Under the pieces are notes generated by a model. It was given only the letters and a program-made list of their open reading frames with translations. It was not told the origin of the DNA and made no database searches. This document shows positions 4,368-62,958 of a stretch of 64,000 nucleotides of DNA, in pieces. A program made the position numbers and the translations under genes. The stretch is taken from positions 24,306 through 88,305 of the forward strand of contig CAYZTB010000004.1 of NCBI GenBank assembly GCA_964481195.1, given 5' to 3'. The first letter of the stretch is position 1. Every line of letters begins with the position of its first letter. The DNA comes from an uncultured Bacteroidia bacterium. Lineage in GTDB: Bacteria > Bacteroidota > Bacteroidia > Palsa-948.

Positions 4368-4375
4368 TACCTTTG
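4368..4375 (+). promoter_or_regulatory. Bacteroidota -7 promoter element (TACCTTTG) for cvfB
   Basis: Matches TAnnTTTG; ends 3 nt before the ATG at 4379. Confidence 0.6.
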
Positions 4376-4378
4376 CAT

Positions 4379-5281
4379 ATGATTAATTTGGGAGCATATA
4401 ACACGTTGGCAGTATTACGCAGAGCCGATCAGGGTTTGTATTTGGGCGATGATTCTGGAGAATCGGTGCTTTTGCCAAACCGGTATATTCCCGAAGGTGC
4501 AGATATTGGGGATACGCTGGATGTTTTCATTTATAATGACTCCGAAGACAGAATCATTGCTACCACACTTGTTCCTAAATTTACGCTCAACAAATTTGCT
4601 TGTCTGGAAGTAGTAGCCGTTTCGAGCAGCGGAGCTTTTTTGGATTGGGGCCTGGCTAAAGATATTTTTGTTCCCTTTAAAGAGCAGATGAAAAAACTGG
4701 AAGTGGGACAGTTTGTAATTGCCTTTTTGTATTTAGATACTATTACCAATAGGTTGGCGGCATCGTGTAAGACTAATAAACACTTAAATAATGAAACGCT
4801 TGATGTAAAAGAAAACGAGGAGGTCGAGCTTTTAATTATGGAGAAAACAGATTTGGGTATTAACGTTATTATTAATGATAAATACAAGGGAATTATTTAC
4901 GAAAATGAAATTTTTAAAACCCTTACTTTTGGAGATCGCACAAAAGGACACATTAAAAAAATTAGAGAAGACAATAAAATTGATGTGAGTCTGGAAAAAT
5001 TAGGCTATGCCAAAGTAGAGTCAAACGAAGAAAAGATTTTAGAAAAACTACAAGAGAACAAAGGATTTCTTCCTTTAAATGATTACAGTTCTCCCGAAGA
5101 AATTGTGGCGCTATTGGAAATGAGCAAAAAGACTTTTAAGAAAGCGATTGGCTCCTTATTCAAACAACGAAAAATTAGAATAGAGGAGAAGGGGATATAT
5201 ACCCACCCTCCCCAACCCTCCCAGGGGGAGGGGGTTGCACGCCCAAGTTCTCCCCCTTCGGGGGAGTTAGAGGTGGCTTAA
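4379..5281 (+). CDS. cvfB: CvfB/YitL S1-domain RNA-binding protein with repeat-derived C-terminal tail
   Basis: GAFLDWGLAKDIFVPFKEQ, MSKKTFKKAIGSLFK winged helix; the last ~26 aa are encoded by a palindromic repeat. Confidence 0.9.
   Translation: MINLGAYNTLAVLRRADQGLYLGDDSGESVLLPNRYIPEGADIGDTLDVFIYNDSEDRIIATTLVPKFTLNKFACLEVVAVSSSGAFLDWGLAKDIFVPFKEQMKKLEVGQFVIAFLYLDTITNRLAASCKTNKHLNNETLDVKENEEVELLIMEKTDLGINVIINDKYKGIIYENEIFKTLTFGDRTKGHIKKIREDNKIDVSLEKLGYAKVESNEEKILEKLQENKGFLPLNDYSSPEEIVALLEMSKKTFKKAIGSLFKQRKIRIEEKGIYTHPPQPSQGEGVARPSSPPSGELEVA
5202..5277. repeat. C/G-rich palindromic doublet (family C), copy 1
   Basis: Arm A CCCTCCC-AGG-GGGAGGG, ~15-nt spacer, arm B CTCCCCC-TTC-GGGGGAG-TTAGAGG; same architecture at 11481 and 58800. 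Confidence 0.85.
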
Positions 5282-6478
5282 TCTCCCCGCAATAAAACCC
5301 GTTGTCCATGCTGCTTGAAAGTTAAAGCCGCCAGTTACAGCATCAACATTAAGCACCTCACCTGCAAAATACATGTCTGGGCATTTTTTGCTCTCCATCG
5401 TTTCAAAGTTCACATCATCTAGTGAAATTCCCCCGCAAGTAACAAACTCTTCTTTGAAAGTTGTTTTGCCTTCAGCGCTATAACAATCGTTCACGAGGGT
5501 ATTAATTAATTTATTCAGACTTTTTTTAGGAAGTTGGTTCCAGGTAGTTTCAGAAACAATTTCATTTTTCTCCAGCAGATATAACCACAATCTATTAGGT
5601 AACAGAAAAGGATTTTTGTTTCCTATTTGTCGTTTGCCTATTATTTTTAACTCTGTTTCCAGCTGTGCTCTAATTTCTTGTTCGGTATTATTTCCTAGCC
5701 AGTTTACTAGAATTTCAAATTTATAATTCATGGCTTGCAGCTCTCTGGCTCCCCAAGAGGATAGTTTTAAAATTGCAGGCCCACTCATTCCCCAATGTGT
5801 AATCAACAACGGACCTTCGCTAGAAAGTTTTGTGCCCTTCACTTTTACGGATACCGATTCAGCAACTACGCCCATAAGTTTTGTTATGCTTTCTGTTGGC
5901 ATGTTAAACGTAAAAAGCGATGGTACGGGCGAAACAATTTGATGTCCGAGTTCTTTTAGCCAGTTAAATCCTTCCGGCTTTGGGCTTCCTCCGCTGGCAA
6001 TAATAATTTTGTCGGCAACAATTTCGTTGCTACCCACCGAAAGGATAAATCCTTTGCCCTTCTTGGAGATTTTAGAAATAGCAGTTCCTCTTTTTATAAC
6101 AACGCCAAGCTTATCAGCCTCTTTTGTCAGACAATCAATGATGGTTTGCGAATTATCCGTTACGGGAAACATGCGATTATCTTTTTCTGTTTTAAGCTTT
6201 ACGCCTCTGGCTTCAAACCAATGAACAGTATCGTTTGCGTTAAACTGCGTAAAAGCTTTTTTAAGTTGCCTACCGCCACGAGGGTAAAATTTGGCAAGCT
6301 GAGAGTTTTCAAAACAGGCGTGCGAAACATTACATCGGCCACCACCGGATACGCTCACTTTAGCAAGTAGCTTGTCGGATTTTTCAAGTATCGTAACGTC
6401 AAAATCAGGGTGATGATGCTTGCAAGATAATGCAGCAAAAAACCCGGCAGCTCCTCCTCCTATAACTAGTACTTTCAT
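5267..6478 (-). CDS. NAD(P)/FAD-dependent oxidoreductase, HI0933/YhiN (BaiN) family
   Basis: GGGAAG, VSGGGRCNV, LLITHWGMSGPA, GGFNFQAAWTTG. Confidence 0.92.
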   Translation of the reverse strand: MKVLVIGGGAAGFFAALSCKHHHPDFDVTILEKSDKLLAKVSVSGGGRCNVSHACFENSQLAKFYPRGGRQLKKAFTQFNANDTVHWFEARGVKLKTEKDNRMFPVTDNSQTIIDCLTKEADKLGVVIKRGTAISKISKKGKGFILSVGSNEIVADKIIIASGGSPKPEGFNWLKELGHQIVSPVPSLFTFNMPTESITKLMGVVAESVSVKVKGTKLSSEGPLLITHWGMSGPAILKLSSWGARELQAMNYKFEILVNWLGNNTEQEIRAQLETELKIIGKRQIGNKNPFLLPNRLWLYLLEKNEIVSETTWNQLPKKSLNKLINTLVNDCYSAEGKTTFKEEFVTCGGISLDDVNFETMESKKCPDMYFAGEVLNVDAVTGGFNFQAAWTTGFIAGRLSHL

Positions 6479-6520
6479 CTTTATTTAGTCCTACCTTTAC
6501 AAAACAAAAGTATTGTTTTA

Positions 6521-10737: not shown

Positions 10738-12831
10738 TTATAAAATGTTGTTTAGCAATTGCTCATCCACTAAATTGGGCAGGGTAACTTTCAATTTTTT
10801 GCTTCGTTTCATTTCACGCTCTATGGCAAAAATAGCTTCTTTGTTACGCGCCCAACCTCTGCGAGCAATACCGTTATTTACATCCCAGAAAAGCATGGAT
10901 TTTAATCTGCGATCTGCATCTTTGCTGCCGTCCAGCACCATACCAAATCCACCATTTATTACTTCGCCCCAGCCAACACCCCCTCCGTTGTGCAGCGATA
11001 TCCAAGTAGCCCCGCGAAATCCATCGCCAACAAAATTCTGAACAGCCATGTCGGCAGTGAACTGAGAGCCATCATAAATATTGGATGTTTCCCGATATGG
11101 AGAATCTGTTCCCGATACATCGTGATGATCGCGCCCCAGCACAACCGGAGCAGATATTTTTTTTGCTTTGATCGCCTTGTTAAATGCTTCGGCAATTTTT
11201 ATTCTTCCTTCCGCATCGGCATACAAAATACGCGCTTGCGATCCAACAACCATTTTATTTTTCTGCGCTTCTTTTATCCAATGAATATTATCGGCTAGCT
11301 GTTGTTTTATTTCCTTGGGAGCTTTCTTGTAAATCCCTTCCAGCATCTTTGCGGCAATTTTATCTGTTACTTCTAAGTCTTTAGGATTTGCAGAGGTACA
11401 CACCCATCGAAAAGGACCAAAGCCATAGTCGAAACACATCGGCCCCATAATATCTTGAACGTAAGAAGGGTAGCGGAACACCCCACTCCCCGCTCTCCCC
11501 GAAGGGGAGAGAGTCGGAGTACTATCTTCTCCCCCTTTGGGGGAGATAAGAGAGGGGGTGTGGCTGTAAACATCCGCTCCAGCTCTTCCTGCCTCGAGCA
11601 AAAACGCATTTCCATAATCGAAAAAATACATGCCCTGTGCTGTAAGTTTATTTACGGCATTTACATGACGCACGAGCGTTTTTTGAACTTCTACTTTAAA
11701 CTGTGCAGGGTTTTCTGCCATCATTTTGTTTGCTTCATCAAAAGAAATCCCTACGGGATAATAACCTCCTGAATATGGATTGTGAAGAGAAGTTTGATCA
11801 GAACCCATTTCAACTTTTACGTTTTCAGCAGCAAACTTTTCCCATAGATCTACAATGTTGCCTTGATAAGCTAGCGACACCGCTTCTTTTTTATTTCTTG
11901 CAATTTCAATTCTTGCTATAAGCGTATCCAAATCTGAAAAAACTTCGTTCACCCATCCCTGCGAATGTCGTGTATATGTTGCTTTGGGATTTATTTCTGC
12001 AATCACAGCGATTGCACCTGCAATTACTCCTGCTTTGGGCTGCGCTCCACTCATGCCGCCCAGTCCTGAAGAAACAAAAAGAAGCCTCTCCCCAGCCCTC
12101 CCCGTTGGAGAGGGAGTATTTGCCCGATACATACGTGAAGCATTCAAAAGGGTGATGGTTGTGCCGTGCACTATTCCTTGCGGACCAATGTACATGAAGG
12201 ACCCAGCAGTCATTTGTCCGTATTGAGTTACACCCAGTGCATTGTATTTTTCCCAATCATCCTGCTTGGAATAATTTGGAATCATCATGCCATTGGTAAC
12301 AACTACGCGAGGCGCATCTTTATGTGATGGAAACAATCCTAACGGATGGCCAGAATACATTACAAGCGTTTGCTCATTCGTCATCGTTGCCAAATAGTTC
12401 ATGGTAAGCAAGTACTGCGCCCAGTTTTGAAAAACTGCTCCGTTGCCACCGTAGGTTATTAGCTCGTGCGGGTGTTGCGCCACAGCATAATCCAAGTTGT
12501 TGGACAGCATGTGCATGATGGCGCCTGCTTGCTTGGACTTATAGGGATATTCTGAAATTGGTCTGGCAAAAATTTTATAATCCGGACGAAAGCGGTACAT
12601 GTAAATACGTCCGTACGTTTTTAGTTCATCAGCAAATTCTTTAGCAAGCGTAGCATGAAACTTTTTTTGAAAATATCGCAGCGCATTTTTAATAGCCAAC
12701 TTTTTTTCATCGGTCGATAAAATATCTTTTCGCTTAGGTGCGTGATTGAGCGAGCGATCAAATTCTTTTACAGCAGGCAATTTATCCGGAATGCCTTTCA
12801 AAATCTCTTTTTGAAATTCTTTTTTTGTCAT
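10738..12831 (-). CDS. hutU: Urocanate hydratase (long form) with two repeat-derived insertions
   Basis: GQMTAGSFMYIGPQGIVHGT, GLGGMSGAQPKA, GRDHHDVSGTDSPYRET, HNGGGVGWG. Confidence 0.97.
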   Translation of the reverse strand: MTKKEFQKEILKGIPDKLPAVKEFDRSLNHAPKRKDILSTDEKKLAIKNALRYFQKKFHATLAKEFADELKTYGRIYMYRFRPDYKIFARPISEYPYKSKQAGAIMHMLSNNLDYAVAQHPHELITYGGNGAVFQNWAQYLLTMNYLATMTNEQTLVMYSGHPLGLFPSHKDAPRVVVTNGMMIPNYSKQDDWEKYNALGVTQYGQMTAGSFMYIGPQGIVHGTTITLLNASRMYRANTPSPTGRAGERLLFVSSGLGGMSGAQPKAGVIAGAIAVIAEINPKATYTRHSQGWVNEVFSDLDTLIARIEIARNKKEAVSLAYQGNIVDLWEKFAAENVKVEMGSDQTSLHNPYSGGYYPVGISFDEANKMMAENPAQFKVEVQKTLVRHVNAVNKLTAQGMYFFDYGNAFLLEAGRAGADVYSHTPSLISPKGGEDSTPTLSPSGRAGSGVFRYPSYVQDIMGPMCFDYGFGPFRWVCTSANPKDLEVTDKIAAKMLEGIYKKAPKEIKQQLADNIHWIKEAQKNKMVVGSQARILYADAEGRIKIAEAFNKAIKAKKISAPVVLGRDHHDVSGTDSPYRETSNIYDGSQFTADMAVQNFVGDGFRGATWISLHNGGGVGWGEVINGGFGMVLDGSKDADRRLKSMLFWDVNNGIARRGWARNKEAIFAIEREMKRSKKLKVTLPNLVDEQLLNNIL
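11481..11558. repeat. Family C palindromic doublet, in-frame inside hutU
   Basis: CTCTCCCC-GAA-GGGGAGAG, spacer, CTCCCCC-TTT-GGGGGAG-ATAAGAGAGG; encodes PSLISPKGGEDSTPTLSPSGRAGSG. Confidence 0.85.
12084..12116. repeat. Family C single arm inside hutU
   Basis: GCCTCTCCCCAGCCCTCCCCGTTGGAGAGGGAG; encodes TPSPTGRAGERL. Confidence 0.75.
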
Positions 12832-14255: not shown

Positions 14256-15404
<1,149 letters not shown>

Positions 15405-15483: not shown

Positions 15484-16464
15484 ATGGTAAAGAAAGTATT
15501 TTCTTGTGCATTTATTTTTCGTAATAATAATATTTCAGCTATTCTTTGTCTTCTCCCTATTTCCTTATTCCTATTACCTAATCCCTTAGCTTCTCAACCT
15601 GCCGAGTACCGCACCACCCGTGCCGATTACATAGAAAAATACAAGGATATTGCCATAAAAGAAATGATGGTAAACGGCATTCCAGCAAGCATAACATTGG
15701 CGCAAGGCATTTTAGAATCGGATGGAGGCAACAGCGCCTTAGCTATGTATGCAAACAATCACTTTGGTATTAAGTGCCATAAAGAATGGAATGGAGCCAA
15801 ATACATTCAGGATGATGATGAGAAGAACGAATGTTTCCGGAAATATAAAACGGCCGAGGAATCTTTTGACGACCATTCAGAGTTTCTGAAAACACGTGGC
15901 AGGTATGCTACTCTTTTTGAACTTCGTAAAACCGATTACAAAGGCTGGGCCGATGGATTGCGAGAAGCAGGCTATGCTACCGACAAAAGTTACGCTGCAC
16001 GACTCATTAAATTAATTGAGGACAACAAGCTCTACCAATTTGACCGCATGCAAGAAATGGCAATAGATAGTAAGGACAAGAAAAACCCGCAGCCACAAGT
16101 TATAAAACCAACGAATACTTCATCGCCAGCTAAAAAGATTTTTTTGAATAATAGAATAAAATATGTAGTGGTAGAGGATGGCGACACATACTATAAAATT
16201 GCGCAACGCTTAGATATGCGACTGTGGCAGCTGCACAACTACAACGAAACCGGAAAGCAAACTTGTTTGGAAGTGGGCGATATTGTTTACATGCAACCCA
16301 AGCGCAGGCATTCTCAAAAGGAACAATTTCATACACTGCGCTGGGGCGAAAGCATGTATTACATCTCCCAGCTTTATGGAATTAAGATGCGACATCTTAA
16401 CCGCCTAAACAAAATGCAGGATGGGCAAGAGCCCGCAGCAGGACAGAGGATTAAGTTGCGTTGA
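15484..16464 (+). CDS. GH73 glucosaminidase with two LysM domains (peptidoglycan hydrolase)
   Basis: IPASITLAQGILES, NNHFGIKCH, AGYATDKSYA, two LysM repeats. Confidence 0.93.
   Translation: MVKKVFSCAFIFRNNNISAILCLLPISLFLLPNPLASQPAEYRTTRADYIEKYKDIAIKEMMVNGIPASITLAQGILESDGGNSALAMYANNHFGIKCHKEWNGAKYIQDDDEKNECFRKYKTAEESFDDHSEFLKTRGRYATLFELRKTDYKGWADGLREAGYATDKSYAARLIKLIEDNKLYQFDRMQEMAIDSKDKKNPQPQVIKPTNTSSPAKKIFLNNRIKYVVVEDGDTYYKIAQRLDMRLWQLHNYNETGKQTCLEVGDIVYMQPKRRHSQKEQFHTLRWGESMYYISQLYGIKMRHLNRLNKMQDGQEPAAGQRIKLR
15556..15590. repeat. Degenerate 7-mer tandem array (CCTWWTN x5) in the signal-peptide region
   Basis: CCTATTT CCTTATT CCTATTA CCTAATC CCTTAGC. Confidence 0.55.
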
Positions 16465-16644
16465 CTTCGACAAGCTCAGTCAACGGGGAGTTTTTTGTGT
16501 CCGAGTAATTTCTGGTAGTTGAGCAGTTTCTGATGATTGAGCTGCTCCAGTGGTTGAGCAGTACCTGGTAGTTGAGCTGCTCCGGTGGTTGAGCAGTACC
16601 TGGTGGTTGAGCAGTACCTGGTGGTTGAGCTTGTCGAAACCACC
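16459..16644. repeat. Family B inverted REP pair enclosing a 7-unit 17/18-bp tandem array
   Basis: CGTTGAC-TTCGACAAGCTCA-GTCAACG at 16459-16485; TTGAGC cores at 16519, 16537, 16554, 16572, 16589, 16607, 16625; terminal GGTGGTT-GAGCTTGTCGA-AACCACC. Confidence 0.9.
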
Positions 16645-16654
16645 GTTAATAAGA

Positions 16655-16948
16655 ATGAAAGGCTGGATGTATATTTTAGAATGTTCTGATGGTAGCTATT
16701 ACACAGGCAGCACCAATAATTTGGAATATCGTTTTCAACAGCATCAAAATGGAGAGGGTGCTAACCATACTAAAAAGCACTTACCTGTGAAACTTGTGTA
16801 CTATGAGGAATATCCAAGAGTAGATCAAGCATTTTATCGCGAGAAACAGGTGCAGGGCTGGAGTCGAAAAAAGAAAGAAGCAATGATTCATAGCAAGCCG
16901 GAGATATTGCCCGAACTATCTAAAAACTACACTCAATTTCCACAATAA
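16655..16948 (+). CDS. Stand-alone GIY-YIG nuclease (UPF0213/YhbQ-like)
   Basis: MKGWMYILECSDGSYYTGST, RFQQH, AFYREKQVQGWSRKKKEA; the track's upstream extension is translated repeat. Confidence 0.9.
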   Translation: MKGWMYILECSDGSYYTGSTNNLEYRFQQHQNGEGANHTKKHLPVKLVYYEEYPRVDQAFYREKQVQGWSRKKKEAMIHSKPEILPELSKNYTQFPQ

Positions 16949-17955: not shown

Positions 17956-18303
17956 TTAGCCCAACTCAGCCAATATTTTCTCAATGGATATCTTCAAGCG
18001 AGGAATATCGGCATACACAACATTCCACACTTGTTTACTGGAGATGCCGAAATATTCATGAGCAATAACGTTTCGGAAAGCTTTAATTCTGTACCATTCT
18101 ACATCTAGATATTTTGCTTTGAGCTCATCTGAAAGTACATTAACTGCCTCGCCAATTATTTCCATTTGCCGCTCCACCGCAGACTGCACCAGAATATTGG
18201 AGCAATAGGCACTCTCATCCATTCCTTTTGTAAATAACAGAATGTGATTCATGGCATCTTGAACGTGAAGCAGGCGTTGCTTATCTCCAAGCGAATTTTT
18301 CAT
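17956..18303 (-). CDS. hepT: HepT/DUF86 HEPN ribonuclease toxin
   Basis: AVERQMEIIGEA and RNVIAHEY (Rx4H plus Tyr). Confidence 0.9.
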   Translation of the reverse strand: MKNSLGDKQRLLHVQDAMNHILLFTKGMDESAYCSNILVQSAVERQMEIIGEAVNVLSDELKAKYLDVEWYRIKAFRNVIAHEYFGISSKQVWNVVYADIPRLKISIEKILAELG

Positions 18304-18593
18304 CAGGGTCTTTCGAAAAGAAGAACTTTGCTTTTATCGACAAATGGACGGATATATTTTGATATTCCATCTTCTGAAACCAAATCAATCTTTTTCCCAA
18401 TAATTTTTTCAAGGTCTAGCTTCCAGCCTATAAAATCGAGTAAACTCACTTTTTTTTGTGTATAATCTACATCTACTAGCAAATCAATATCACTCTGTTC
18501 TGTTTGCTTGTTTTGAGCGTAGGAGCCAAATACATAGACACTTCTGACAGGAAGATTTTGAAAATAATCTTTTATAATCTGTAGGTTATTCAT
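18303..18593 (-). CDS. mntA: MNT minimal nucleotidyltransferase antitoxin
   Basis: VFGSYAQNKQTEQSDIDLLVD; 1-nt overlap with hepT; -7 element (TATCTTTG on minus) at 18601-18608. Confidence 0.9.
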   Translation of the reverse strand: MNNLQIIKDYFQNLPVRSVYVFGSYAQNKQTEQSDIDLLVDVDYTQKKVSLLDFIGWKLDLEKIIGKKIDLVSEDGISKYIRPFVDKSKVLLFERP

Positions 18594-19950: not shown

Positions 19951-20017
19951 TTCAACAAATTTAGCTTTTTCTCTAAAGGGTAAAGAGGGGGCTTTCAATT
20001 AAAACGGCATTCGATTT

Positions 20018-20100
20018 TTCAACACAGAGAGCACAGAGTTTACTGAGATTCACAGAGAAACTCTGTGTTACTCTGTTTGCTTCGCGAACTCTGTGTTAAA
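20018..20100. mobile_element. Gene-less family A (CACAGAG) inward-facing doublet, MITE-like
   Basis: TTCAACACAGAGAGCACAGAG...GAGATTCACAGAG-AAA-CTCTGTGTTACTC...CTCTGTGTTAAA; arms match the flanks of GxxExxY at 62495/62914. Confidence 0.7.
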
Positions 20101-20217
20101 GATTTTATTATTCGTATTAAAATACGTTTAATAGCAAACAATAACATTCAAGCTAAAACTCTTTCAATAGCTCTTAATAAATTATATCTTTGCGCCACAA
20201 TCTTAAATATAAAAATT

Positions 20218-20628: not shown

Positions 20629-20703
20629 TACGACAAAACTAAGACCAATTTCATTTAGTAGAATTCAATTTGAAGGCATTGGCTTAGTTTTTTAAGTATT
20701 CAT

Positions 20704-20834
20704 CCTTTGTGAACTTTGTGGGCTGATTCTTTGTGTTCTTTGCGGTTTCTGCCTTTTTAACAGCCGAAACCACAAAGAGAATCATGTAAATACACGCTCC
20801 AAAGGAGTCCCTTCGGGGCAAAGAACATAGAGGA
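20704..20834. repeat. Family A' (CACAAAG) outward-facing doublet with a nested family D element (20796-20819)
   Basis: Reverse-complement similarity to 28964-29070 (TTTGTGGGCTG, TTTGYGGTTTCTG, CAGCCGAAACCACAAAG); GCTCCAAAGGAGTCCCTTCGGGGC interrupts a CAC^AAAG unit. Confidence 0.8.
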
Positions 20835-20971
20835 ATACAAGCTGAGACGCTTAATACAAAATACTGTTTTTTGCTGTCGTTCTGTTTTATTATCTTCGCA
20901 CGCCCGAATGAGAATTGCTCAGGTGGGCAACTTTTAAAAAAAAATAGTCAACAATCATTAAAATATAAATC

Positions 20972-25494: not shown

Positions 25495-25533
25495 GTTAAG
25501 GCTGATTTACAGATTCAAACTAGCTCTTCCAGA

Positions 25534-25902
25534 TTATTTCTTTTTCTTATCTTTTTCAAGCAACGAGTTTATTTTTTGAAGTAACCCGTATTTATCCTTC
25601 AATTCTGAAATTTCTTTTTTGAGAATTTCTGTCTCTTGAGGAGGAGGCTTGCTTTTTCCTGTCCTATAATCTGGCACAGGCTCGGCAGAAGATAAAATCT
25701 GTTCATCCGAAAAATAGTGTTTGAAAAAATTATAGTTAAAGGCGTAAGAAATCTTCGAAAGCAAATATGTGTCAATGGATTTCCGTTTATAAATTCCGTA
25801 AATATTCTGCTTAGAAGTGTTTATCATTTTACTCAGTTCGGTGGGGCCAATGCGTAATTCCTTTGCTTTTTCGCGTATTTTTTGACCTATGTGAATCTCC
25901 AT
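25534..25902 (-). CDS. XRE/Cro-like HTH transcriptional regulator
   Basis: HIGQKIREKAKELRIGPTELSKMINTSKQNIYGIYKRKSIDT; C-terminal coiled coil. Confidence 0.8.
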   Translation of the reverse strand: MEIHIGQKIREKAKELRIGPTELSKMINTSKQNIYGIYKRKSIDTYLLSKISYAFNYNFFKHYFSDEQILSSAEPVPDYRTGKSKPPPQETEILKKEISELKDKYGLLQKINSLLEKDKKKK

Positions 25903-25990
25903 ACGGCAAAATTGGGCAATAACCCTCCTGTATCCGTTTAATAAAGGTATGTTTATATAATAATATTAGTATATAAATTCTTTAATTATT

Positions 25991-26007
25991 GTAAATTATA
26001 TATTTAC
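25991..26007. promoter_or_regulatory. Palindrome, candidate operator between the regulator and the lipoprotein cluster
   Basis: GTAAAT-TATAT-ATTTAC, upstream of a -7-like TATATTTG; AT-rich, so it could be chance. Confidence 0.35.
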
Positions 26008-26010
26008 TTT

Positions 26011-27063
26011 ATGGCAATAAATCATATATTTGTAGTATCGTCCAAAATCGCTTTTAAATTGAAAGAAAAATTACTTTATGTGATTGTCAGCCTTGTTTTT
26101 ATGAGTTGCGCTGATTGGGTAAAAATTGTCAATCTCACAGTCGTATCAACGAGAAATTACAATTCTCAGGCGGGATATAAAGAGCTGCAAAGGTTTGCTG
26201 AAGGACGCGACAATGGTAAATCAGTGACATCAAGAGAAGGTAAAGTTTCGGCAGAGAACAATGGAAAAATAACTGCCGCGATTGAAGATGCCATACGAAA
26301 TGTACCCGGTGGGGAATGCATGCAGAATGTTCAAGTTTATGAAAAGAATGGGAAGATTAAAGTGGTTGGCGATGTGTGGGGCTTTCCGGAAAACGCAAAT
26401 AAAAATCAGTATGGACATAATATCAATGCTGGCGAGAAAGTAATGTTTAAATGGAATGGCAGTTTTATTACCGGGGTAGTAGTAGCTATAGAGGTTGATA
26501 AAGCGGCTGTTAAATATCTAGATAGTAGGGGAGGAGAGCAAATTAAAAAATTTGATTATAAAGATTTAACAAAATACACAGGCGCAGAGTTGCCAGTCAA
26601 TTCTTCGAAGGCCGAGTTTACCGAGGGAGATTTGGTCACTTGGAAAAGAGATTGGGGTTCCGAATATGATCAGGGAACCGTTAGAGCAGTTAAGGGTAAA
26701 TATGTGATAGTAGATTACAAAAATCAGAATGGACGTGATAAAACAATAGAAATTATTTCTTCGAAACTCACAAAGATCCAGGCTCCTGCTAACAATCCAA
26801 CAGTCACGGAAAATAATTCCCCTATTGTTAATCAGAGGCCTCCAGATATGCCAGCTTCCCAATTCAATGCTGAAAAGCAATTTTATACTGTTAATACAGA
26901 AACCCTTAATGTAAGAGAAGAGCCTAACATATCATCCTCATCTTTTTTAACATTAAAAAAAGGTTCGCAGGTTGAGCTTGTTGAAAAAACAAGCGCAGGG
27001 TGGTGGAAAGTGAAATATAGTGGCGTGGAGGGATATGTTTCTTCGAAATACCTGACTAAATAA
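26011..27063 (+). CDS. Lipoprotein with two Tudor/SH3-fold-like repeats and a C-terminal bacterial SH3 domain (likely TTG start near 26059)
   Basis: LVFMSC lipobox; AGEKVMFKW / EGDLVTWK repeats; TLNVREEPNISS...LKKGSQVELVEK...WWKVKY...GYVSSKYL. Confidence 0.75.
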   Translation: MAINHIFVVSSKIAFKLKEKLLYVIVSLVFMSCADWVKIVNLTVVSTRNYNSQAGYKELQRFAEGRDNGKSVTSREGKVSAENNGKITAAIEDAIRNVPGGECMQNVQVYEKNGKIKVVGDVWGFPENANKNQYGHNINAGEKVMFKWNGSFITGVVVAIEVDKAAVKYLDSRGGEQIKKFDYKDLTKYTGAELPVNSSKAEFTEGDLVTWKRDWGSEYDQGTVRAVKGKYVIVDYKNQNGRDKTIEIISSKLTKIQAPANNPTVTENNSPIVNQRPPDMPASQFNAEKQFYTVNTETLNVREEPNISSSSFLTLKKGSQVELVEKTSAGWWKVKYSGVEGYVSSKYLTK

Positions 27064-27093
27064 ACAAACAATAACAATCAAAACAAATCAAAA

Positions 27094-27678
27094 ATGAAAA
27101 AAACAATTATTCTTGGAATGTTTGCACTAAGCGTGCTAATGTTCAATTCTTGTGCCAAAGATGACCAAATGGGTCCTCAAGGTCCAGCCGGTGCAAACGG
27201 AGCAAATGGAACTGCAGGCACTAATGGAACAAACGGAACTAATGGTACAAATGGCAATGCCAATGTAACGTCTACAACCATAACTCCCAATAACTGGGTT
27301 ACTGATTATGATGATGGAATCAATTTTGATTATAGTGTTTCTATGTCATGGGCGAACATTACACAATCCGTTAAAGATAAAGGTGCAGTTATGGTATATG
27401 GTGACGATGGTGCGGGGAGTTGGGTTGCACTGCCTTATACATATTCCGATGATACTTATTATTCCACTACTTTGAATTTTTGGTTTTCTATCGGTACTGT
27501 AAAAGTACAGTATGTTGGATTTGATGATTCAGGATCACCTGGTTCTGCATCATTTTTAAATGGGCAACTGAAATTTAAAATTGTTGCGATTGACGGTTCT
27601 AGGTGGGCTAATTTCCCTAAGAGCGTTAATATCAAAAATTACAAAGAAGTAAAAGAATATTTTCAATTGATAGATTAA
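27094..27678 (+). CDS. Collagen-like lipoprotein
   Basis: FNSC lipobox; G-X-Y run GPQGPAGANGANGTAGTNGTNGTNGTNG. Confidence 0.8.
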   Translation: MKKTIILGMFALSVLMFNSCAKDDQMGPQGPAGANGANGTAGTNGTNGTNGTNGNANVTSTTITPNNWVTDYDDGINFDYSVSMSWANITQSVKDKGAVMVYGDDGAGSWVALPYTYSDDTYYSTTLNFWFSIGTVKVQYVGFDDSGSPGSASFLNGQLKFKIVAIDGSRWANFPKSVNIKNYKEVKEYFQLID

Positions 27679-27701
27679 TAAAGTAAAATAGTATTATGAA
27701 T

Positions 27702-27734
27702 AAAAACCCCATTCCATAGTGGAATGGGGTTTTT
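27702..27734 (+). terminator. Intrinsic terminator
   Basis: AAAAACCCCATTCCA-TAG-TGGAATGGGGTTTTT. Confidence 0.85.
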
Positions 27735-27759
27735 CAACCTTATTTAAAAGTACCCCAAA

Positions 27760-28128
27760 ATGAAAACAAAAATACTATCTGCACTTTTATTCTGTTCACT
27801 AATTCTATTTAGCGAATGCAAAAAAGAAACACCCTCAAGTCCCGGAAATGGCACTGCGACACAACCGGGATGTGTAACAAACAATACAGGCGTTGTGTAT
27901 TTCAAAAACAAATATTCAGACCCGTACAAATTAGAGATTAACGCAGTTTACAAAGGAACTGTTTCAGGTGGATCATCCACTTCTCCTACTACCAGTTCCC
28001 CCTATACTACTTCTGCGGGAAGTATTTCATGGAAAGCTACACAAGCAAGTGGCTATACTTTTTGGCCCGATGCTTACAATGGGAATAGCACCGTTACGCA
28101 ATGTTCTGATTTGACCATCATATTTTAG
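27760..28128 (+). CDS. Small lipoprotein, hypothetical
   Basis: LFSEC lipobox-like motif; Cys pair; beta-rich Thr/Ser body. Confidence 0.7.
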   Translation: MKTKILSALLFCSLILFSECKKETPSSPGNGTATQPGCVTNNTGVVYFKNKYSDPYKLEINAVYKGTVSGGSSTSPTTSSPYTTSAGSISWKATQASGYTFWPDAYNGNSTVTQCSDLTIIF

Positions 28129-28150
28129 GGTAGGAGCTTTCGGAGTTTTT

Positions 28151-28179
28151 AAGCCATCCCTATCAGGGGTGGCTTTTTT
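28151..28179 (+). terminator. Intrinsic terminator
   Basis: AAGCCATCCC-TATCA-GGGGTGGCTTTTTT. Confidence 0.75.
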
Positions 28180-28492
28180 ATTTTTATAGAACCTCTCTTG
28201 GCCTTTGGCAGTTGAACGTCTTTTGTCAGCGCACGGATTAACTACCTTTTATTGAAATTTTCTATAAAAACCCACCTTATGCGTCTGCAAACGTTTACAA
28301 ACGGGTATATCCGAATGTAAATGCTTAATAACCGACTTGGCCGGCAGGACCGCTGCACCTTTGCCTCATCAAACGAAACGAACAACCAAAATAGGATGCA
28401 CAGTAAAAATAAAAGATCAGGGGAAGTGAATGCGCTTTCTTTAGTTGTACGTGAATATATAATAAAGCACTGTGTAACCATTGCATCCCATA

Positions 28493-28539
28493 TGTCTGCC
28501 CAGTCCCTGAGCTTATCCAAGGACGGGAAGGCGCAGACA
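28493..28539. repeat. Degenerate family B REP inside a hairpin
   Basis: TGTCTGC..GTCC-CTGAGCTTATCCAA-GGAC..GCAGACA; core matches TGAGCTTGTCGAA at 11/13. Confidence 0.6.
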
Positions 28540-28588
28540 AATAACAAAAACAACAGTCCGATCCCTTTGCTCCATCAAACAAAAAAAA

Positions 28589-28972
28589 ATGCTGACAGAA
28601 AATCAACTATCAAATAAAATAATCGGACTTGCGATGCAAGTTCACACCACACTGGGTCCGGGCCTGCTCGAAAGCGCATATAAGGAGTGCATGCAATACA
28701 AAATAAAAAAAGCGGGTCTATGCGTAGAAAAGGAAAAAGCCATGCCACTCATTTTTGAAGAAATAAAGCTGGAATGCGCATACCGCATGGACCTGCTCGT
28801 AGAAAGTAAGGTAGTAATAGAGATCAAGAGTGTAGAGGCGTTGAATGATGTACACCTAGCGCAAACACTCACCTACATGAAACTTGGGAGTTATAAACTA
28901 GGGTTACTGATCAATTTTAATGTTGCACATCTAAGAAATGGAATAAAACGTGTTATAAACGGCACTTTGTGA
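28589..28972 (+). CDS. GxxExxY protein (PD-(D/E)XK nuclease superfamily), copy 1
   Basis: [41 protein letters not shown]. Confidence 0.93.
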   Translation: MLTENQLSNKIIGLAMQVHTTLGPGLLESAYKECMQYKIKKAGLCVEKEKAMPLIFEEIKLECAYRMDLLVESKVVIEIKSVEALNDVHLAQTLTYMKLGSYKLGLLINFNVAHLRNGIKRVINGTL

Positions 28973-29070
28973 CCTCTGTGCCAGCCATAGTGTCCTTTGT
29001 GGTTTCGGCTGATAAATACAGAAACCACAAAGGACACAAAGTGAATAAACAGCCCACAAAGGGCACGAAG
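28964..29070. repeat. Family A' doublet overlapping the GxxExxY-1 stop codon
   Basis: CACTTTGTGACCTCTGTG...CCTTTGTGGTTTCGGCTG-ATAAATA-CAGAAACCACAAAGGACACAAAG...CCCACAAAGGGCACGAAG. Confidence 0.85.
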
Positions 29071-29171
29071 AATATAAAAGAAAAACAAACAACAACAACC
29101 GCCCCTTCCCTAAAAGGGCGAAACAAATAAAACAAACGCTTCATGCAGGGATGAGGCAAAAAAACAAAAAC

Positions 29172-29543: not shown

Positions 29544-29566
29544 GCAATCCAACCTCTAAATCAAAG

Positions 29567-29596
29567 AAGCCTTGTCTTAACAGACAGGGCTTTTTT
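29567..29596 (+). terminator. Intrinsic terminator after ssb
   Basis: AAGCCTTGTC-TTAACA-GACAGGGCTTTTTT. Confidence 0.8.
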
Positions 29597-29674
29597 ATTT
29601 CGGAATTCCCTTTACTTGCAATGAGATTGTATTTCCTACATCTTTTTGTATCTCTGTGCTATAAGAAACAAAAC

Positions 29675-57441: not shown

Positions 57442-59430
57442 TTATTTTTTGTTTGCTAATTGTTTTAGCTCTTCCAGTTCAGCCTCATTTACAAACCCAC
57501 CTTTTTCTTTTGCGGTAAGCATATCCTGTAATGCCTCGTTAAATTTCCCTAAACTTTTATACGAAAGTGCACGGTTGGCATAAGCGCTAACATTATCGGG
57601 CTTCAGCTCCAATGATTTACTAAAGCTTATTACAGACTCTTCATATTTACCACTCATGCTTAAAATGATTCCTCGGTTGTTATAGGCTTGTCCGTTTTCG
57701 GGAGCAAATTCAATTGTTTTATTTATATCTGCCAAGGCTTTGTTTAGCTTACCGCTTTTTCCATACGCTTCGGAGCGAGCATAAAAGCCTTCGCCACTTT
57801 GAGGGTTAATATTTATTATTTCAGAAAAATCTTTTATGGCACTTTCAAAATAATTTTTTTCTACATAAATAGTACCCCTGCTTAAGTAGTTCAGATAATC
57901 TGTTGGAACTTGGTTTATGGCTTTAGTGAAAGAATTAATGGCATCGTCTTTCTTTTTCAGCCGCACTTCGATAAGTCCTTTGTTTCTCCAGGCATTGGGA
58001 TAGCGTGGTTTTAATTTCACTAATGCAATAAAATCTTGCAGCGCTTCTTCGTTACGCGAGGAATCGGATAGCACAGCTCCGCGGTTGGTATAAAGGATAG
58101 CGGCTTGATGTCCGTTATTTATGGCATCAGTATAAAGCGTGATGCTATCGTGCCATACTTTGTTTCTATTAAATGAAGAGTAAGCTAAAAGCAGCAAGCA
58201 AACACCGGCTCCTGATAACACCATTTTATTTTTTAATAAAGGAGTTATGTAATAGGCGACAATAAAAAATAATCCTATAGAAGGCAGGTAGGTGTATCGA
58301 TCGGCATACAAGGCATCGCCAACAGGTAAAAGTTGTAACACCAGCGCGATAGTTATTATAAAAAATGCTGCACCAAACAAAACAAATTTCGATTCTTTAA
58401 AATATTTCCAGATGATAAATGCAAGTGCTAACAACACGGCCGGGCTTAAATAAACCCAGATGGTATTTATTTTATCATCGGTTTCGGGATAGGGGTAGAA
58501 GCAGCTAAGATTTATTGGTAAAATAATTTTATGCAGGTAGGTCATGAGTGCATAACAAGAAAATAATAGTCGTTCGTACAATGGAAAGTATTGAAACGTT
58601 TGCATGGCACCTGCTTTGCCTTGCACATTGATGGCCAGCACACCAAAAGCAATAGCCAATAAAAAGAAAGGAACTTTTTCTAAAATAGTTTGCTTGTTTA
58701 TTTTTCTGCCCAACAAAAAATCCACAGCAAAGAAAACTAAGGGCAACACCACTGCTTGTGCTTTGGAGAGAAGAGCGAGGGTGAAGAGGAAGAGAAGAAG
58801 CCCCACCCTTGCCCTCCCCATAAGGGAGGGAAATAGTGCGACAGTTCCTCCCCTAGCGGGGGAGGTAAGTAGAGAGCCCGATATATACAAATACAAACTC
58901 CACAAAAAGAAAAATCCGTACAACACATCTTTGCGTTCGGATATCCAGGCAACGGATTCTACATGCAACGGATGAATACCAAATAGGAGGGAGGTGAGGA
59001 AAGCTACTAAGAGCGCATTGCTTTTGAAGAGAAAGGATCCAATTTTTTGTATTATCAAAAAAACAAAAAGCGTATTCAGTAAATGTAAAACCAGGTTTGT
59101 TAAATGATATCCAAATGGATTTAGTTCCCAGATTTTATATTCCAGCATATAACTTAACATAGTAAGCGGCTGATAATTACCCACAAACTGTTCCGAGAAA
59201 ATTAGTTTGATGTTAACTACATTTAAAGTGTGAACTGCCGGATTGTTAATGAGGTATTGGGGATCATCCAGGTTAACGAATTTATTTTGTAAGGAAGGCA
59301 AGAAAACTAAAAAGGTAATGGCTAAGATTATAGGTAAAAAGTATTTTTTATACTTTGAAAAAACACCTTCTGCAGGAATTTTATTCGAAGTAGCGGCTTT
59401 AATTTTCGGAGCAGGCTTTGCCATCCTCAA
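57442..59430 (-). CDS. TMTC-like GT-C membrane protein with TPRs and an in-frame repeat insertion
   Basis: NLDDPQY, NYQPLT, HPLHVESVAWISERKDVL, LLSKAQAV, ADRYTYLP, TPR tail. Confidence 0.88.
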   Translation of the reverse strand: MRMAKPAPKIKAATSNKIPAEGVFSKYKKYFLPIILAITFLVFLPSLQNKFVNLDDPQYLINNPAVHTLNVVNIKLIFSEQFVGNYQPLTMLSYMLEYKIWELNPFGYHLTNLVLHLLNTLFVFLIIQKIGSFLFKSNALLVAFLTSLLFGIHPLHVESVAWISERKDVLYGFFFLWSLYLYISGSLLTSPARGGTVALFPSLMGRARVGLLLFLFTLALLSKAQAVVLPLVFFAVDFLLGRKINKQTILEKVPFFLLAIAFGVLAINVQGKAGAMQTFQYFPLYERLLFSCYALMTYLHKIILPINLSCFYPYPETDDKINTIWVYLSPAVLLALAFIIWKYFKESKFVLFGAAFFIITIALVLQLLPVGDALYADRYTYLPSIGLFFIVAYYITPLLKNKMVLSGAGVCLLLLAYSSFNRNKVWHDSITLYTDAINNGHQAAILYTNRGAVLSDSSRNEEALQDFIALVKLKPRYPNAWRNKGLIEVRLKKKDDAINSFTKAINQVPTDYLNYLSRGTIYVEKNYFESAIKDFSEIININPQSGEGFYARSEAYGKSGKLNKALADINKTIEFAPENGQAYNNRGIILSMSGKYEESVISFSKSLELKPDNVSAYANRALSYKSLGKFNEALQDMLTAKEKGGFVNEAELEELKQLANKK
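58800..58878. repeat. Family C palindromic doublet, in-frame inside the TMTC-like gene
   Basis: CCCTCCC-CATAA-GGGAGGG, spacer, CCTCCCC-TAGC-GGGGGAGG; encodes GSLLTSPARGGTVALFPSLMGRARVG. Confidence 0.85.
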
Positions 59431-59504
59431 AAATAAAAAATCCCGACCAGTTGAGGTTAGATTAATAAGTGTTTGAAAAACGATACAAAAAAAATTAGTT
59501 TAGG

Positions 59505-59590
59505 CTCCGTGTTACTCTGTGCTCTTTGTGTCTCTGTGTTGGATGTTTTAACACATAGCCCACAGAGTAGTAAGAGTCCCACAGAGAGAC
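59505..59590. repeat. Family A outward-facing doublet downstream of sdhB
   Basis: CTCCGTGTTACTCTGTG...CTCTGTGTT-GGATGTT-TTAACACATAGCCCACAGAG...GAGTCCCACAGAG. Confidence 0.8.
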
Positions 59591-60400: not shown

Positions 60401-60414
60401 AGGTTGTATTTTTT

Positions 60415-60500
60415 CTCAGTGTAACTCTGGTTTTACCTCTGTGTTCTCTGTGTTGAAAAATTTAACACAGAGCGCGCAGAGGCGAATGAGTTTCACAGAG
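60415..60500. repeat. Family A outward-facing doublet between sdhA and sdhB
   Basis: CTCAGTGTAACTC...CTCTGTGTTCTCTGTGTTGAA-AAA-TTTAACACAGAGCGCGCAGAG...GAGTTTCACAGAG. Confidence 0.85.
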
Positions 60501-60502
60501 TA

Positions 60503-62482
60503 TTATTTATAACTACGCTGCGATGGATGAACAATGTCAAAAACCAACTCTTCCTTATGTAATTCAGATTCGCCAACTCCTTTGTATTCCCAGGCTGCTA
60601 CGTAGCTGAAGTTTTCATCATCGCGTTTTGCTTCTCCATCTTCGGTTTGAGATTCTTCACGAAAATGGCCTCCGCAAGATTCTTTTCTGTTGAGTGCATC
60701 TTTACACATTAATTCACCAAGCTCAATAAAATCTGCAACACGACCTGCTTTTTCCAGTTCTAAGTTCATTTCATTTTGCTCTCCTGGAATTCGAACATCC
60801 TTCCAGAATTCTTCGCGCAGCGCACGAATTTCGGCAATGGCTTCGTTCAATCCTTTTTCATTTCTTGCCATGCCGCACTTGTCCCACATGATTTTTCCTA
60901 ATTTTTTGTGGAAATGATCTACGGACTTTGTTCCTTTGATGCTCATTAATTTATCCAGCTGCTCCTGCACTTTCTTTTCGGCTGCTACAAATGCTTCGTG
61001 GTCGGTAGGGATTGCTTTGGTGCGTATGTCTTGCGATAAATATGTTCCGATGGTGTAGGGCAATATAAAATATCCGTCCGCCAATCCTTGCATGAGTGCT
61101 GATGCTCCTAAGCGATTTGCTCCGTGATCCGAAAAGTTTGCTTCGCCCAGCGCGTACAACCCCGGTACGGATGTCATCAAGTCATAATCTACCCACAGTC
61201 CGCCCATGGTATAATGCACGGCAGGATAAATACGCATGGGAGTTTCGTACGGATTTTCTCCGGTAATTTTTGCATACATGTCAAATAGGTTGCCGTATTT
61301 TTCTTTTACCACTTCTTTTCCAAGTTCAATAATCCGTTCGTTGGAAACATTATGCAGGTTTAGTTTGTTAACCTGACTTTTTCCGTAGCGCACAATGGCA
61401 GCAGTAAAATCTAGGAACACCGCCATTTTAGAAGTGCCCACTCCGTACCCTTCATCGCATCTTTCTTTAGCTGCGCGTGATGCCACATCGCGTGGAACCA
61501 AGTTTCCAAAGGCGGGGTATCTTCTTTCTAAATAATAATCTCTTTCTTCTTCCGGAATGTCTTTAGCTTTTCTAGCATCTCCTTTTGCTTTGGGCACCCA
61601 TATGCGTCCGTCATTTCGTAAGGATTCAGACATCAAGGTTAGTTTGGATTGATGATCTCCCGAAACAGGAATGCAGGTAGGATGTATTTGAGTGTAGCAA
61701 GGATTTCCAAAGAATGCTCCTTGCTTATGCGCTTTCCATGCTGCGGTTACATTAGAACCCATGGCGTTGGTAGAAAGATAAAATACGTTTCCATAACCAC
61801 CGGTGCAAAGTAAAACAGCGTGACCGAAATGCCTTTCCAGTTTTCCGCTGATTAGATCACGTGCAATGATGCCTCGCGCTTTTCCATCAATCATAACAAT
61901 GTCCAGCATCTCGTGACGAGAATACATTTTTACGGTACCAAGGCCTACTTGTCTTTCTAAAGCAGAATATGCTCCGAGCAAAAGTTGTTGTCCGGTTTGT
62001 CCTGCAGCATAAAAAGTACGCTGCACTTGTGTTCCACCAAACGAGCGGTTGCTTAAATAGCCTCCGTATTCACGAGCAAAAGGAACTCCTTGCGCTACAC
62101 ACTGATCAATAATATTGGAAGATACTTCTGCTAAGCGATATACGTTTCCTTCGCGTGCACGGTAGTCGCCACCTTTTACGGTATCGTAAAAAAGTCGAAA
62201 CACGCTATCGCCATCGTTCTGATAATTTTTTGCTGCGTTAATTCCACCCTGTGCTGCGATGGAGTGTGCACGTCTTGGAGAATCTTGAAAGCAGAAACAT
62301 TTTACTTGGTAGCCAAGCTCTGCCAATGAAGATGCTGCTGATGCACCTGCAAGACCGGATCCTACCACAATGATTTCGATGCTGCGTTTGTTGGCAGGGT
62401 TTACCAGTGGGACAGTGGATTTATATTTGACCCACTTTGTTTCAAGATCTCCCGCAGGAATTTTAGAATTTATTTTGCTCAT
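60503..62482 (-). CDS. sdhA: Succinate dehydrogenase/fumarate reductase flavoprotein
   Basis: [47 protein letters not shown]. Confidence 0.97.
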
Positions 62483-62494
62483 AGTATTTACTTT

Positions 62495-62958
62495 TTTAAC
62501 ACAGAGGGCATGGAGAAAAAGAGTTACACGGAGTTTAAATTGCCGTTTATTTTTCTTCGGATACCTTCTTTTAATAAGGGAACATTAAAGTTAATTAAAA
62601 GTCCAAGTTTTTTATTTGCTAGTTTAAGATACGTTACTAATTGCGCTTCGTGAACAGGTAAAATATGTTCAACAGATTTAAATTCTAAAATTATCAAATC
62701 GTTCACTAGGGTATCAATAACAAATTCTTTATCAAGTTTTTCGCCTTTAAATGTAACTGGTAATATTACTTGTCTTTGCACATACAGCCCTTCTTTCAGC
62801 ATTACGTTCTCAGCACATATTTCATATACAGATTCCATTAAACCCGGACCAAGCTCTTTGTGCACTTCCATGCAACAATGAATTATTTGTTGAGAAAGAT
62901 TATTGTAATCCTTCTCTGTGAAACTCTTAACCCTCTGTGTGCTCTGTGTTGAATTCAT
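62495..62958. mobile_element. GxxExxY gene bounded by inverted family A arms, inserted between sdhC and sdhA
   Basis: Left arm TTTAACACAGAG...GAGTTACACGGAG (62495-62533); right arm CTCTGTGAAACTC...CTCTGTGTGCTCTGTGTTGAA (62914-62953). Confidence 0.75.
62524..62958 (-). CDS. GxxExxY protein, copy 2
   Basis: [41 protein letters not shown]; N-terminal [15 protein letters not shown] and C-terminal NSV* are repeat-encoded. Confidence 0.93.

Follow-up and report, generated by a model that had tools for sequence, protein, structure and literature searches.

What multiplies short palindromic repeats in a stretch of genome that encodes no transposase? This question is raised by a 64-kb chromosomal stretch of an uncultured Bacteroidia bacterium (the window; 37% G+C), for which the original prediction proposed that minimal nucleases propagate elements resembling repetitive extragenic palindromic (REP) sequences. 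Three stand-alone small nucleases, two of the GxxExxY family (GxxExxY-1 and GxxExxY-2) and one of the GIY-YIG family, each touch a repeat, and all three are confirmed by profile matches (Table 1). The claimed lack of a DDE or HUH transposase or an integrase is also borne out: Pfam finds no transposase or integrase domain, and no HUH/Y1 domain (PF01797), among the 56 window open reading frames (ORFs) of at least 80 amino acids (aa), intergenic fragments not having been searched. The scan (Pfam and NCBIfam) returned ordinary housekeeping genes, among them sdhCAB, urocanase, AdoHcy hydrolase, SSB, a HepT/MNT pair, and TPR and OmpA proteins. Six ORFs have no NCBIfam match, five of which also lack a Pfam match, and Rfam and tRNA searches found nothing in the window. 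The closest related loci belong to Bacteroidetes and Bacteroidia genomes from metagenome assembly, and the runs that contain window sequence are microbial-mat metagenomes.

The same prediction counted at least five palindromic families and more than 15 copies. Several families are real, but two of them, A and A', form one superfamily and D and E are each represented by no more than one or two copies. The sites number about 14, and the higher count requires that every single arm and hairpin be counted. We find that the window contains two independent modules, each a nuclease with its cognate repeat, plus several orphan repeat families. Our preferred reading, in which we place about half of our confidence, is that the repeat arms are the recognition sites of the nuclease beside them and that these modules have spread as units over evolutionary time and been partly domesticated.

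Pairing of repeat types with nuclease families

We fetched 80 loci related to each of GxxExxY-2, GxxExxY-1 and the GIY-YIG nuclease, the GxxExxY loci coming from Bacteroidota, Acidobacteriota, Cyanobacteria, Verrucomicrobiota, Ignavibacteria, KSB1, Balneolia and others. GxxExxY arrays consist of three or four phased 9–10-bp units with the consensus CRCARAG and the outer end TTTTCAACACAGAG. We scored at least 3 CRCNRAG units as an A-type arm and TTCGR-N4-7-CTCA as a B-type loop. Similar arrays lie directly upstream and, inverted, downstream of nearly all the fetched GxxExxY genes, with the start codon often within the innermost unit (ATGAGTTTCACAGAG) and the stop codon within the first downstream unit (CTCTGTGTAA). 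Scores for inverted repetition between the two flanks exceeded the 99th percentile of same-geometry controls at 59 of the 80 GxxExxY-2 relatives and 49 of the 80 GxxExxY-1 relatives.

A-type arms occur at 3.06/kb within 150 nt of GxxExxY genes and at 0.09/kb in the outer flanks of these loci; the corresponding densities at GIY-YIG loci are 0.04/kb and 0.02/kb. For B-type loops, we observed 7.81/kb within 150 nt of GIY-YIG genes (79 of 80 loci) and 0.81/kb in the outer flanks, with 0.03/kb and 0.09/kb, respectively, at GxxExxY loci. A-type arms thus go with GxxExxY and B-type loops with GIY-YIG. The outer flanks also give a hint that repeat abundance may depend on the enzyme, A-type arms lying there at 0.09/kb in GxxExxY loci and at 0.02/kb in the unrelated GIY-YIG loci. 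A matrix of repeats by neighbouring genes, as the original prediction had suggested, was built here in a small version for GxxExxY and GIY-YIG (160 + 80 loci), and it shows a pairing that is specific and recurs across phyla. The breadth of this pairing hints that common enzymes, whose label has so far carried no function, act on the DNA adjoining them.

These densities also bear on the possibility that an enzyme encoded elsewhere, a REP-associated tyrosine transposase (RAYT/HUH) or an insertion-sequence (IS) transposase, spreads the palindromes, with the nuclease genes as passengers or preferred landing sites. REP-RAYT systems do act in trans, at a distance. Such an enzyme would not explain why arrays are 30- to 100-fold enriched right at the nuclease genes across 160 + 80 loci in many phyla, why each repeat type lies only at its own nuclease, why the arms contain the start and stop codons, or why unit type tracks nuclease subfamily within one genome, and no transposase is found among the window ORFs. 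We consider this explanation quite improbable.

The tracking of unit type is clear between the two GxxExxY subfamilies. For GxxExxY-2, the 26 closest relatives include 18 loci in which CRCAGAG predominates and none in which CRCAAAG does; for GxxExxY-1, the 26 closest include 1 locus of the CRCAGAG type and 22 of the CRCAAAG type. The CACAGAG (family A) and CACAAAG (family A') types, each with gene-less copies, coexist in one genome. Such a pattern is expected if gene and arms are inherited together, and it is compatible too with specific recognition of the arms. The same unit architecture extends from Bacteroidota to Acidobacteriota, Cyanobacteria and Verrucomicrobiota at 50–60% protein identity. 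On L246, a predicted viral contig, the arrays flanking a GxxExxY gene consist of ATCAGCG/ATCCGCG and CGCAGAT units; arm units therefore vary widely between GxxExxY subfamilies.

The association concerns abundant proteins. Few small bacterial proteins of unknown function are as common as GxxExxY (PF13366) and the UPF0213-type GIY-YIG nucleases; GxxExxY alone comprises 33,007 clusters at 50% identity (profile search, E up to 0.001), and we found no paper linking GxxExxY/PF13366 to repeats in the searchable literature. A repeat of its own for each enzyme, of a type that tracks the subfamily, provides a concrete candidate substrate. If the enzymes cut their arms, this would explain widespread intergenic palindromes that alter operon spacing and would add further sequence-specific small nucleases as potential tools, as argued for the Ssn nucleases discussed below; if they do not, the tight linkage would still need explaining.

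A gene-plus-arms unit in the sdhCAB operon

The GxxExxY-2 ORF encodes 144 aa from its upstream ATG, with the conserved domain beginning near 62904. Its N-terminal 18 aa are encoded by the 5' arm, its stop codon falls within the first 3' unit, and its start reads AAGAGTTTCACAGAG in place of the ATGAGTTTCACAGAG usual in relatives. Nucleotide homology (blastn) to six elements in unrelated contexts (L001, L002, L004, L011, L017 and L020, the last from candidate division KSB1) stops at 62473–62493 and 62951–62964. Because homology shared across contexts starts and ends at the arm termini, we delimit gene and arms as a discrete unit of 464 bp.

A single-protein query with SdhC returned only two related loci, L161 and L162 (SdhC 77–81% identical). 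The sdhC–sdhA gap measures 481 nt in the window, holding gene and arms, versus an armless 3–17 nt in these two species; the sdhA–sdhB gap, which holds a doublet, measures 102 nt versus an armless 11–34 nt; and downstream of sdhB the window has a doublet where L161 and L162 have no arm. Relative to these two related species, and judged from the sequences, the gene-plus-arms unit and the two gene-less doublets are lineage-specific insertions. The view that repeats shape operon junctions, also part of the original prediction, holds at this operon.

Family A is built of 9–10-nt units containing CACAGAG, a heptamer with 20 exact occurrences in the window against ~5 expected from base composition. 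All but two of the 20 fall in five intergenic clusters, which are inverted arrays: the two arms of the GxxExxY-2 element and the three gene-less doublets (Table 1). The four-unit arm consensus runs AACACAGAG, NN-CACNGAG, one degenerate unit and TT(T/A)CACAGAG. As single-stranded DNA (ssDNA), the family A doublets fold with z of -3.1 to -5.2 relative to shuffles.

Folding of this kind would also suit a role at the RNA level, in which the arms pair in the operon transcript and the stem is processed, as by RNase III on rRNA intervening sequences, insulating or terminating, so that a foreign small gene is expressed or tolerated in host operons. The position of the elements in co-transcribed sdhCAB junctions, the way the arms enclose exactly the ORF, start and stop included, and the good folding of the gene-less doublets are consistent with it. 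The arms themselves are not: their mismatches show no sense-strand excess of the G.U-compatible type (170 sense-strand G.T versus 205 of the antisense type) and are mostly transversion-type, and identity between the two arms of an element (0.71) is no higher than between arms of different elements (0.69–0.72). Gene orientation relative to the arms also varies between clades, and no Rfam family matches. We regard a transcript-level role as very improbable; the mismatch spectrum and the arm identities argue that the arms are sequence motifs read in DNA, not a stem selected in the transcript.

The second copy, GxxExxY-1, is 48% identical to GxxExxY-2 and is followed by an A' block, whose 19-bp hairpin folds with z -8.0. 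Against the syntenic orthologue in locus L163, its nonsynonymous divergence (dN) is 0.05 and its synonymous divergence (dS) 1.88, a dN/dS of about 0.03. This is comparable to the GATase-like neighbour gene (dN 0.08, dS 4.0) and tighter than SSB (dN 0.08, dS 0.71). The 3' arm is 81% identical to that of L163, though 69% of silent sites differ, and the spacer upstream of the gene cannot be aligned with L163. With arm and gene conserved against saturated silent sites, GxxExxY-1 and its 3' arm are therefore functional and fixed here, not decaying. In that unalignable spacer, ~60–70 nt upstream of the gene, we also noticed a degenerate family B loop, TGAGCTTATCCAAGG, at 28493–28539.

Conservation of this arm is difficult to reconcile with the arms being inert baggage, whether flanking DNA that was co-transferred or what is left of a single old duplication, as is the retention of one unit architecture across phyla at the protein identities given above. 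The divergence of the gene-less copies and the lack of activity in metagenome contigs would fit inert DNA, which we nevertheless consider the least probable of the explanations weighed here, and a very remote one.

Table 1. Repeats and nuclease genes of the window, with positions counted from its first letter
Feature	Position	Strand	Remarks
Complete GxxExxY-2 element (5' arm, gene, 3' arm), 464 bp	62492-62955	(-)	Between sdhC stop and sdhA start
GxxExxY-2 ORF	62524-62958	(-)	PF13366 E 2e-38, TIGR04256 E 2e-39; between sdhC and sdhA
5' arm of GxxExxY-2 element	62907-62955	(-)	Gene sense TTCAACACAGAG CACACAGAG GGTTAAGAG TTTCACAGAG
3' arm of GxxExxY-2 element	62492-62523	(-)	Gene sense CTCTTTTTCTCCATGCCCTCTGTGTTAAAAAA
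Gene-less family A doublet	60410-60502		Between sdhA and sdhB; arm ends abutted, CTCTGTGTT GAAAAATTT AACACAGAG; ssDNA fold z -5.15
Gene-less family A doublet	59500-59590		Downstream of sdhB; ssDNA fold z -3.1
Gene-less family A doublet	20014-20105		Arm order as in gene-bearing element, AA joining arms; ssDNA fold z -4.5
Gene-less family A' block	20700-20835		CACAAAG units; one CAC/AAAG unit split by family D copy
GxxExxY-1 gene, 127 aa	28589-28972	(+)	PF13366 E 6e-41, TIGR04256 E 1e-41; no 5' arm
Family A' (CACAAAG) block after GxxExxY-1	28965-29075		3' arm, 19-bp hairpin 28985-29042, further arm 29026-29070
Stand-alone GIY-YIG nuclease gene, UPF0213-like	16655-16948	(+)	PF01541 E 1e-18; 97 aa
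Family B	16462-16645		Complementary-loop hairpins TTCGACAAGCTCA at 16466 and TGAGCTTGTCGAA at 16626, around tandem array
Family C hairpin pair	5201-5264		Convergent ends of CvfB-like and HI0933-like genes
Family C copy, in frame in urocanase	11468-11513		~18 extra residues vs PDB 6uek
Family C copy, in frame in urocanase	12080-12116		~6 extra residues vs PDB 6uek
Family C/D copy	14736-14788		Inside PLP-dependent enzyme gene (PLP, pyridoxal phosphate)
Family C hairpin pair	58796-58865		Inside TPR protein gene; fold z -3.5
Family E two-hairpin 92-bp insert, single copy	30019-30110		Decayed ParE/RelE-like region; fold z -6.8

Predicted enzymes, their relatives and a mechanism of spread

Both window GxxExxY copies score 132–142 bits against curated cut-offs of 22 and 35 (PF13366 PDDEXK_3 and TIGR04256). 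In 68 sequences including both copies, G21, E24, Y27, E74, K76 and Y92 are invariant, and D64 and Q88 are at least 90% conserved; they include the D...ExK...QxxxY motif set of RecB/Cas4-type nucleases. There is no sequence-level relative in the PDB. An AlphaFold (AF2) model with a pLDDT of 94.5 has as its nearest PDB folds Cas4 SSO0001 (4ic1: E 1e-3, TM 0.53), lambda exonuclease, LHK-Exo and RecE, and the protein weakly matches the Cas4 hidden Markov model, its only link to a defence-system or phage family among those searched. The model thus predicts a nuclease core of ~125 aa in the Cas4/lambda-exonuclease branch of the PD-(D/E)XK fold. A fold like that of Holliday-junction resolvases was considered and is not supported, as the fold search led to Cas4 and lambda exonuclease. 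GxxExxY resembles Cas4, lambda exonuclease and RecE in predicted fold and in the D...ExK...QxxxY set; it differs from them in its size (~125 aa versus 200 or more), in having neither Fe-S cluster cysteines nor extra domains, and in lying outside any CRISPR or recombination operon. The best-scoring family representatives (P0002–P0017) are 240–295 aa long with two GxxExxY domains, and could have arisen as genuine fusions or by read-through of an open arm between tandem cassettes.

The GIY-YIG module has the same general layout. Its ORF spans 16550–16948(+), the real start probably being the ATG at 16655, and the closest solved structures are the UPF0213 proteins 1zg2 (BH0048; E 4e-15) and 1ywl (EF2693; E 4e-9). 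The tandem array of family B, made of 17/18-nt half-sites (GGTGGTTGAGCAGTACCT), ends just before the GIY-YIG start, and relatives of the locus carry tandem half-site arrays too. Within 250 nt of the homologues (n=80), a B loop is present upstream in 43, downstream in 71 and on both sides in 35. Each hairpin has a variable 7-bp stem (172 distinct in 376 instances) around the conserved 13-nt loop TTCGACAAGCTCA. Stems with at least 6 of 7 pairs amount to 57%, versus 19% after swapping partners. Taken singly, the two window hairpins fold no better than shuffles of their own composition. At eight relatives (L085, L088–L090, L098, L105, L110 and L146), the GIY-YIG genes and hairpins appear to lie inside type I restriction-modification operons, seemingly between the methylase and specificity genes as read by eye from the flanking sequence, which suggests that such operons are favoured as a niche or target.

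GIY-YIG nucleases of the Ssn family cut, in ssDNA, the NTS/SRM hairpin repeats that flank their genes (Chenal et al. 2025, Nat Commun 16:2388, PMC11893778), with a measured effect on natural transformation, and their authors themselves note the IS-like NTS-ssnA-NTS layout (PMC11893778). The window modules share with Ssn-NTS a small single-domain nuclease gene with its own hairpin repeat on one or both sides, a pairing that spans many phyla, and repeat variants that accompany enzyme variants. The enzymes themselves differ: Ssn forms the cd10448 GIY-YIG clade, and the window GIY-YIG protein, also single-domain at 97 aa, is nearest to UPF0213 structures; GxxExxY has a PD-(D/E)XK fold and phased heptamer arrays instead of single tagged hairpins. 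The published SRM pattern (HGTCWYN(0-2)YYVSBRHN(0-5)WNVSBRGN(0-2)RNCYNB), which recognises all NTS variants, gave 0 matches in the window and the 80 homologous loci, so that family B is not of the SRM class; it is a different repeat class, possibly belonging to a different GIY-YIG clade.

REP/REPIN-RAYT systems (REPtrons) offer a second comparison, with an enzyme gene bracketed by inverted short repeats and gene-less doublets between genes. In Acidobacteriota, GxxExxY lies between (arm, ~90 nt, arm) units much as RAYT lies between REP pairs. The differences are that RAYT, an HUH/Y1 transposase, both cuts ssDNA and rejoins it, the window enzymes being hydrolytic nucleases with no known strand-transfer activity, and that the window repeats are unit arrays of low copy number, a REP being a single 20–40-nt palindrome. 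By analogy, the window modules parallel Ssn-NTS and RAYT-REP in layout, and cleavage of the arms is a prediction here. Free-standing homing endonuclease genes, such as Seg and Mob of phage T4, are not known to have bounding repeat arrays or to leave gene-less palindromes; GxxExxY-2 resembles them in being wedged between the conserved genes sdhC and sdhA and missing from that junction in L161 and L162. Transposons with terminal inverted repeats (TIRs), such as Mu, Tn7 and those with plant Ac/En-Spm-type ends, have multiple subterminal binding sites and derivatives known as miniature inverted-repeat transposable elements (MITEs). The window elements likewise have inverted ends of phased, binding-site-like units, gene-less copies of the internal-deletion type, and arms conserved as sequence, not as pairing partners. 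Unlike TIR transposons, they have no DDE or other transposase in the window, no near-identical copies, and no target-site duplication that we could find.

We propose that the adjoining GxxExxY nuclease would recognise the arrays by their sequence and bind or cleave them, and that the gene and its arms would be inherited and transferred as a single unit. Over evolutionary time, this unit would land between genes, here sdhC and sdhA, probably by break-and-repair copying with host recombination, as in homing. It would leave gene-less arm doublets behind, and some copies would become fixed and be held by selection, as GxxExxY-1 may have been. The GIY-YIG module may follow the same logic, by analogy with Ssn cutting of the flanking NTS hairpins in ssDNA. 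Binding or cutting of its arms by the nuclease would then drive the spread of gene-bearing or gene-less copies.

A number of observations weigh against this proposal. A lone PD-(D/E)XK or GIY-YIG nuclease cannot transpose DNA unaided and needs host repair. Gene-less A copies and gene-bearing arms are only ~80% alike and therefore give no sign of recent copying, and family B lies only at its own gene in the window, without dispersed copies, and is therefore not a dispersed REP-like family there. No target-site duplication or common target is definable at the elements, as the palindrome runs into A/T-rich flanks (A/T runs that prolong it, TTTTC/GAAAA); the empty sites of L161 and L162 are too diverged for alignment with the window. 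In eight microbial-mat runs, of which only assembled contigs, which lose rare variants, were searched, there is no empty-site joint and no new site, and long exactly matching contigs (runs X1 and X4) cross the element unchanged. One arm-to-arm joint in the contigs, from 62926 to 60437, is most likely another repeat copy and no rearrangement. Exact-protein look-ups placed neither GxxExxY-1 nor the GIY-YIG protein in a second genomic context, and the 144-aa GxxExxY-2 ORF is not on record. GxxExxY-1 has lost its 5' arm and is fixed under purifying selection. About one third of GxxExxY homologues have no detectable arms, some of them at sites conserved across genera (L021, L022 and L024). The Acidobacteriota layout, (arm, ~90 nt, arm)(arm, ~90 nt, arm) GENE (arm, ~90 nt, arm), with the gene outside the arm pairs and arm orientation reversed, fits a simple TIR transposon poorly. 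Plasmids (8 of 72,556 records) and viral contigs (5 matches) seldom carry a GxxExxY gene. Finally, no nuclease gene neighbours families C, D or E in the window; these are phenomena separate from the nuclease-repeat modules, and the original grouping of all palindromes under nucleases does not stand. Of the idea that minimal nucleases propagate REP-like elements, the specific pairing and the RAYT-REP-like layout are upheld; for propagation itself we found no polymorphism, identical copies or target duplication.

The three armless loci just named have their GxxExxY gene directly upstream of the same small gene, apparently for a membrane protein, in Chitinophaga, Sediminibacterium and a Chitinophagaceae metagenome-assembled genome, and look like a fixed, possibly domesticated lineage.

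Several of these points would be expected of a host-serving, Ssn-like system that is not self-mobile, in which the nucleases cut the repeats of their own genome in ssDNA, at transformation, replication or repair, and modulate recombination or DNA uptake. The repeats would then stand beside the gene through common descent or because they serve autoregulation, and benefit to the cell would keep the modules in place. Ssn provides the precedent, with its effect on transformation. GxxExxY-1 and its arm stay in one place under strong purifying selection, which agrees with a host-serving role, as do the armless copies at sites conserved across genera and the lack of movement in metagenome contigs or exact-protein look-ups. 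Such a role leaves unexplained the discrete gene-plus-arms insertion in an essential operon, absent in relatives, the patchy cross-phylum spread of 70–87% identical proteins with the same arms, and the pseudogenised copies (5 of 80 GxxExxY homologues have premature in-frame stops). On the key step, a nuclease acting on its own repeats, it overlaps with our preferred reading of modules that spread as units. We consider a purely host-serving role possible but doubtful.

With similar reserve, we put forward a more specific form of our preferred reading, a speculative one that we think rather unlikely in full: that GxxExxY proteins are minimal Cas4-like nucleases that read phased heptamer arrays as sequence and assemble on them, every subfamily on a unit of its own, that their cutting in or next to the arrays drives recombination-dependent copying of the cassette and its doublets, and that they form a nuclease-only selfish class, the third such system beside RAYT-REP and Ssn-NTS. 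Such a class would coexist in one genome with a UPF0213 GIY-YIG/TTCGACAAGCTCA-hairpin system of the same logic.

Orphan repeat families and neighbouring loci

Family C comprises GC-rich CTCCCC..GGGGAG hairpins, several copies of which fold no better than composition-matched shuffles. Like BoxC/PIT-type and Rickettsia RPE-type repeats, they are small GC-rich hairpins found in frame in enzyme loops. That repeats shape protein loops, as had been predicted, is thus true of family C in urocanase, a family with no nuclease partner in the window. Family D has two copies, one at 14757, in frame in the PLP-dependent enzyme gene, and one at 20802, with 0.26 matches expected for the pattern. The latter, a 23-nt copy at 20796–20819 (core AAGGAGTCCCTTCGGG, 20802–20817), breaks a CAC/AAAG unit of the gene-less A' block; small repeats land within other repeats.

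Other differences and genes in the window stand apart from these repeats. A 1212-aa ORF at 30318–33956 (-) has no match in Pfam or NCBIfam. Compared with the syntenic locus L163, window positions 25495–28564 form an extra 3-kb block encoding HTH, SH3-domain and collagen-like proteins and a 122-aa ORF, and positions 29544–30317 hold ~650 extra nt with a decayed ParE/RelE-like module that carries the 92-bp two-hairpin insert of family E. A HepT-like RNase and an MNT nucleotidyltransferase form a toxin-antitoxin pair at 17956–18593 (-), the MNT protein of which matches the PADLOC candidate PDC-S09 (E 4e-21).

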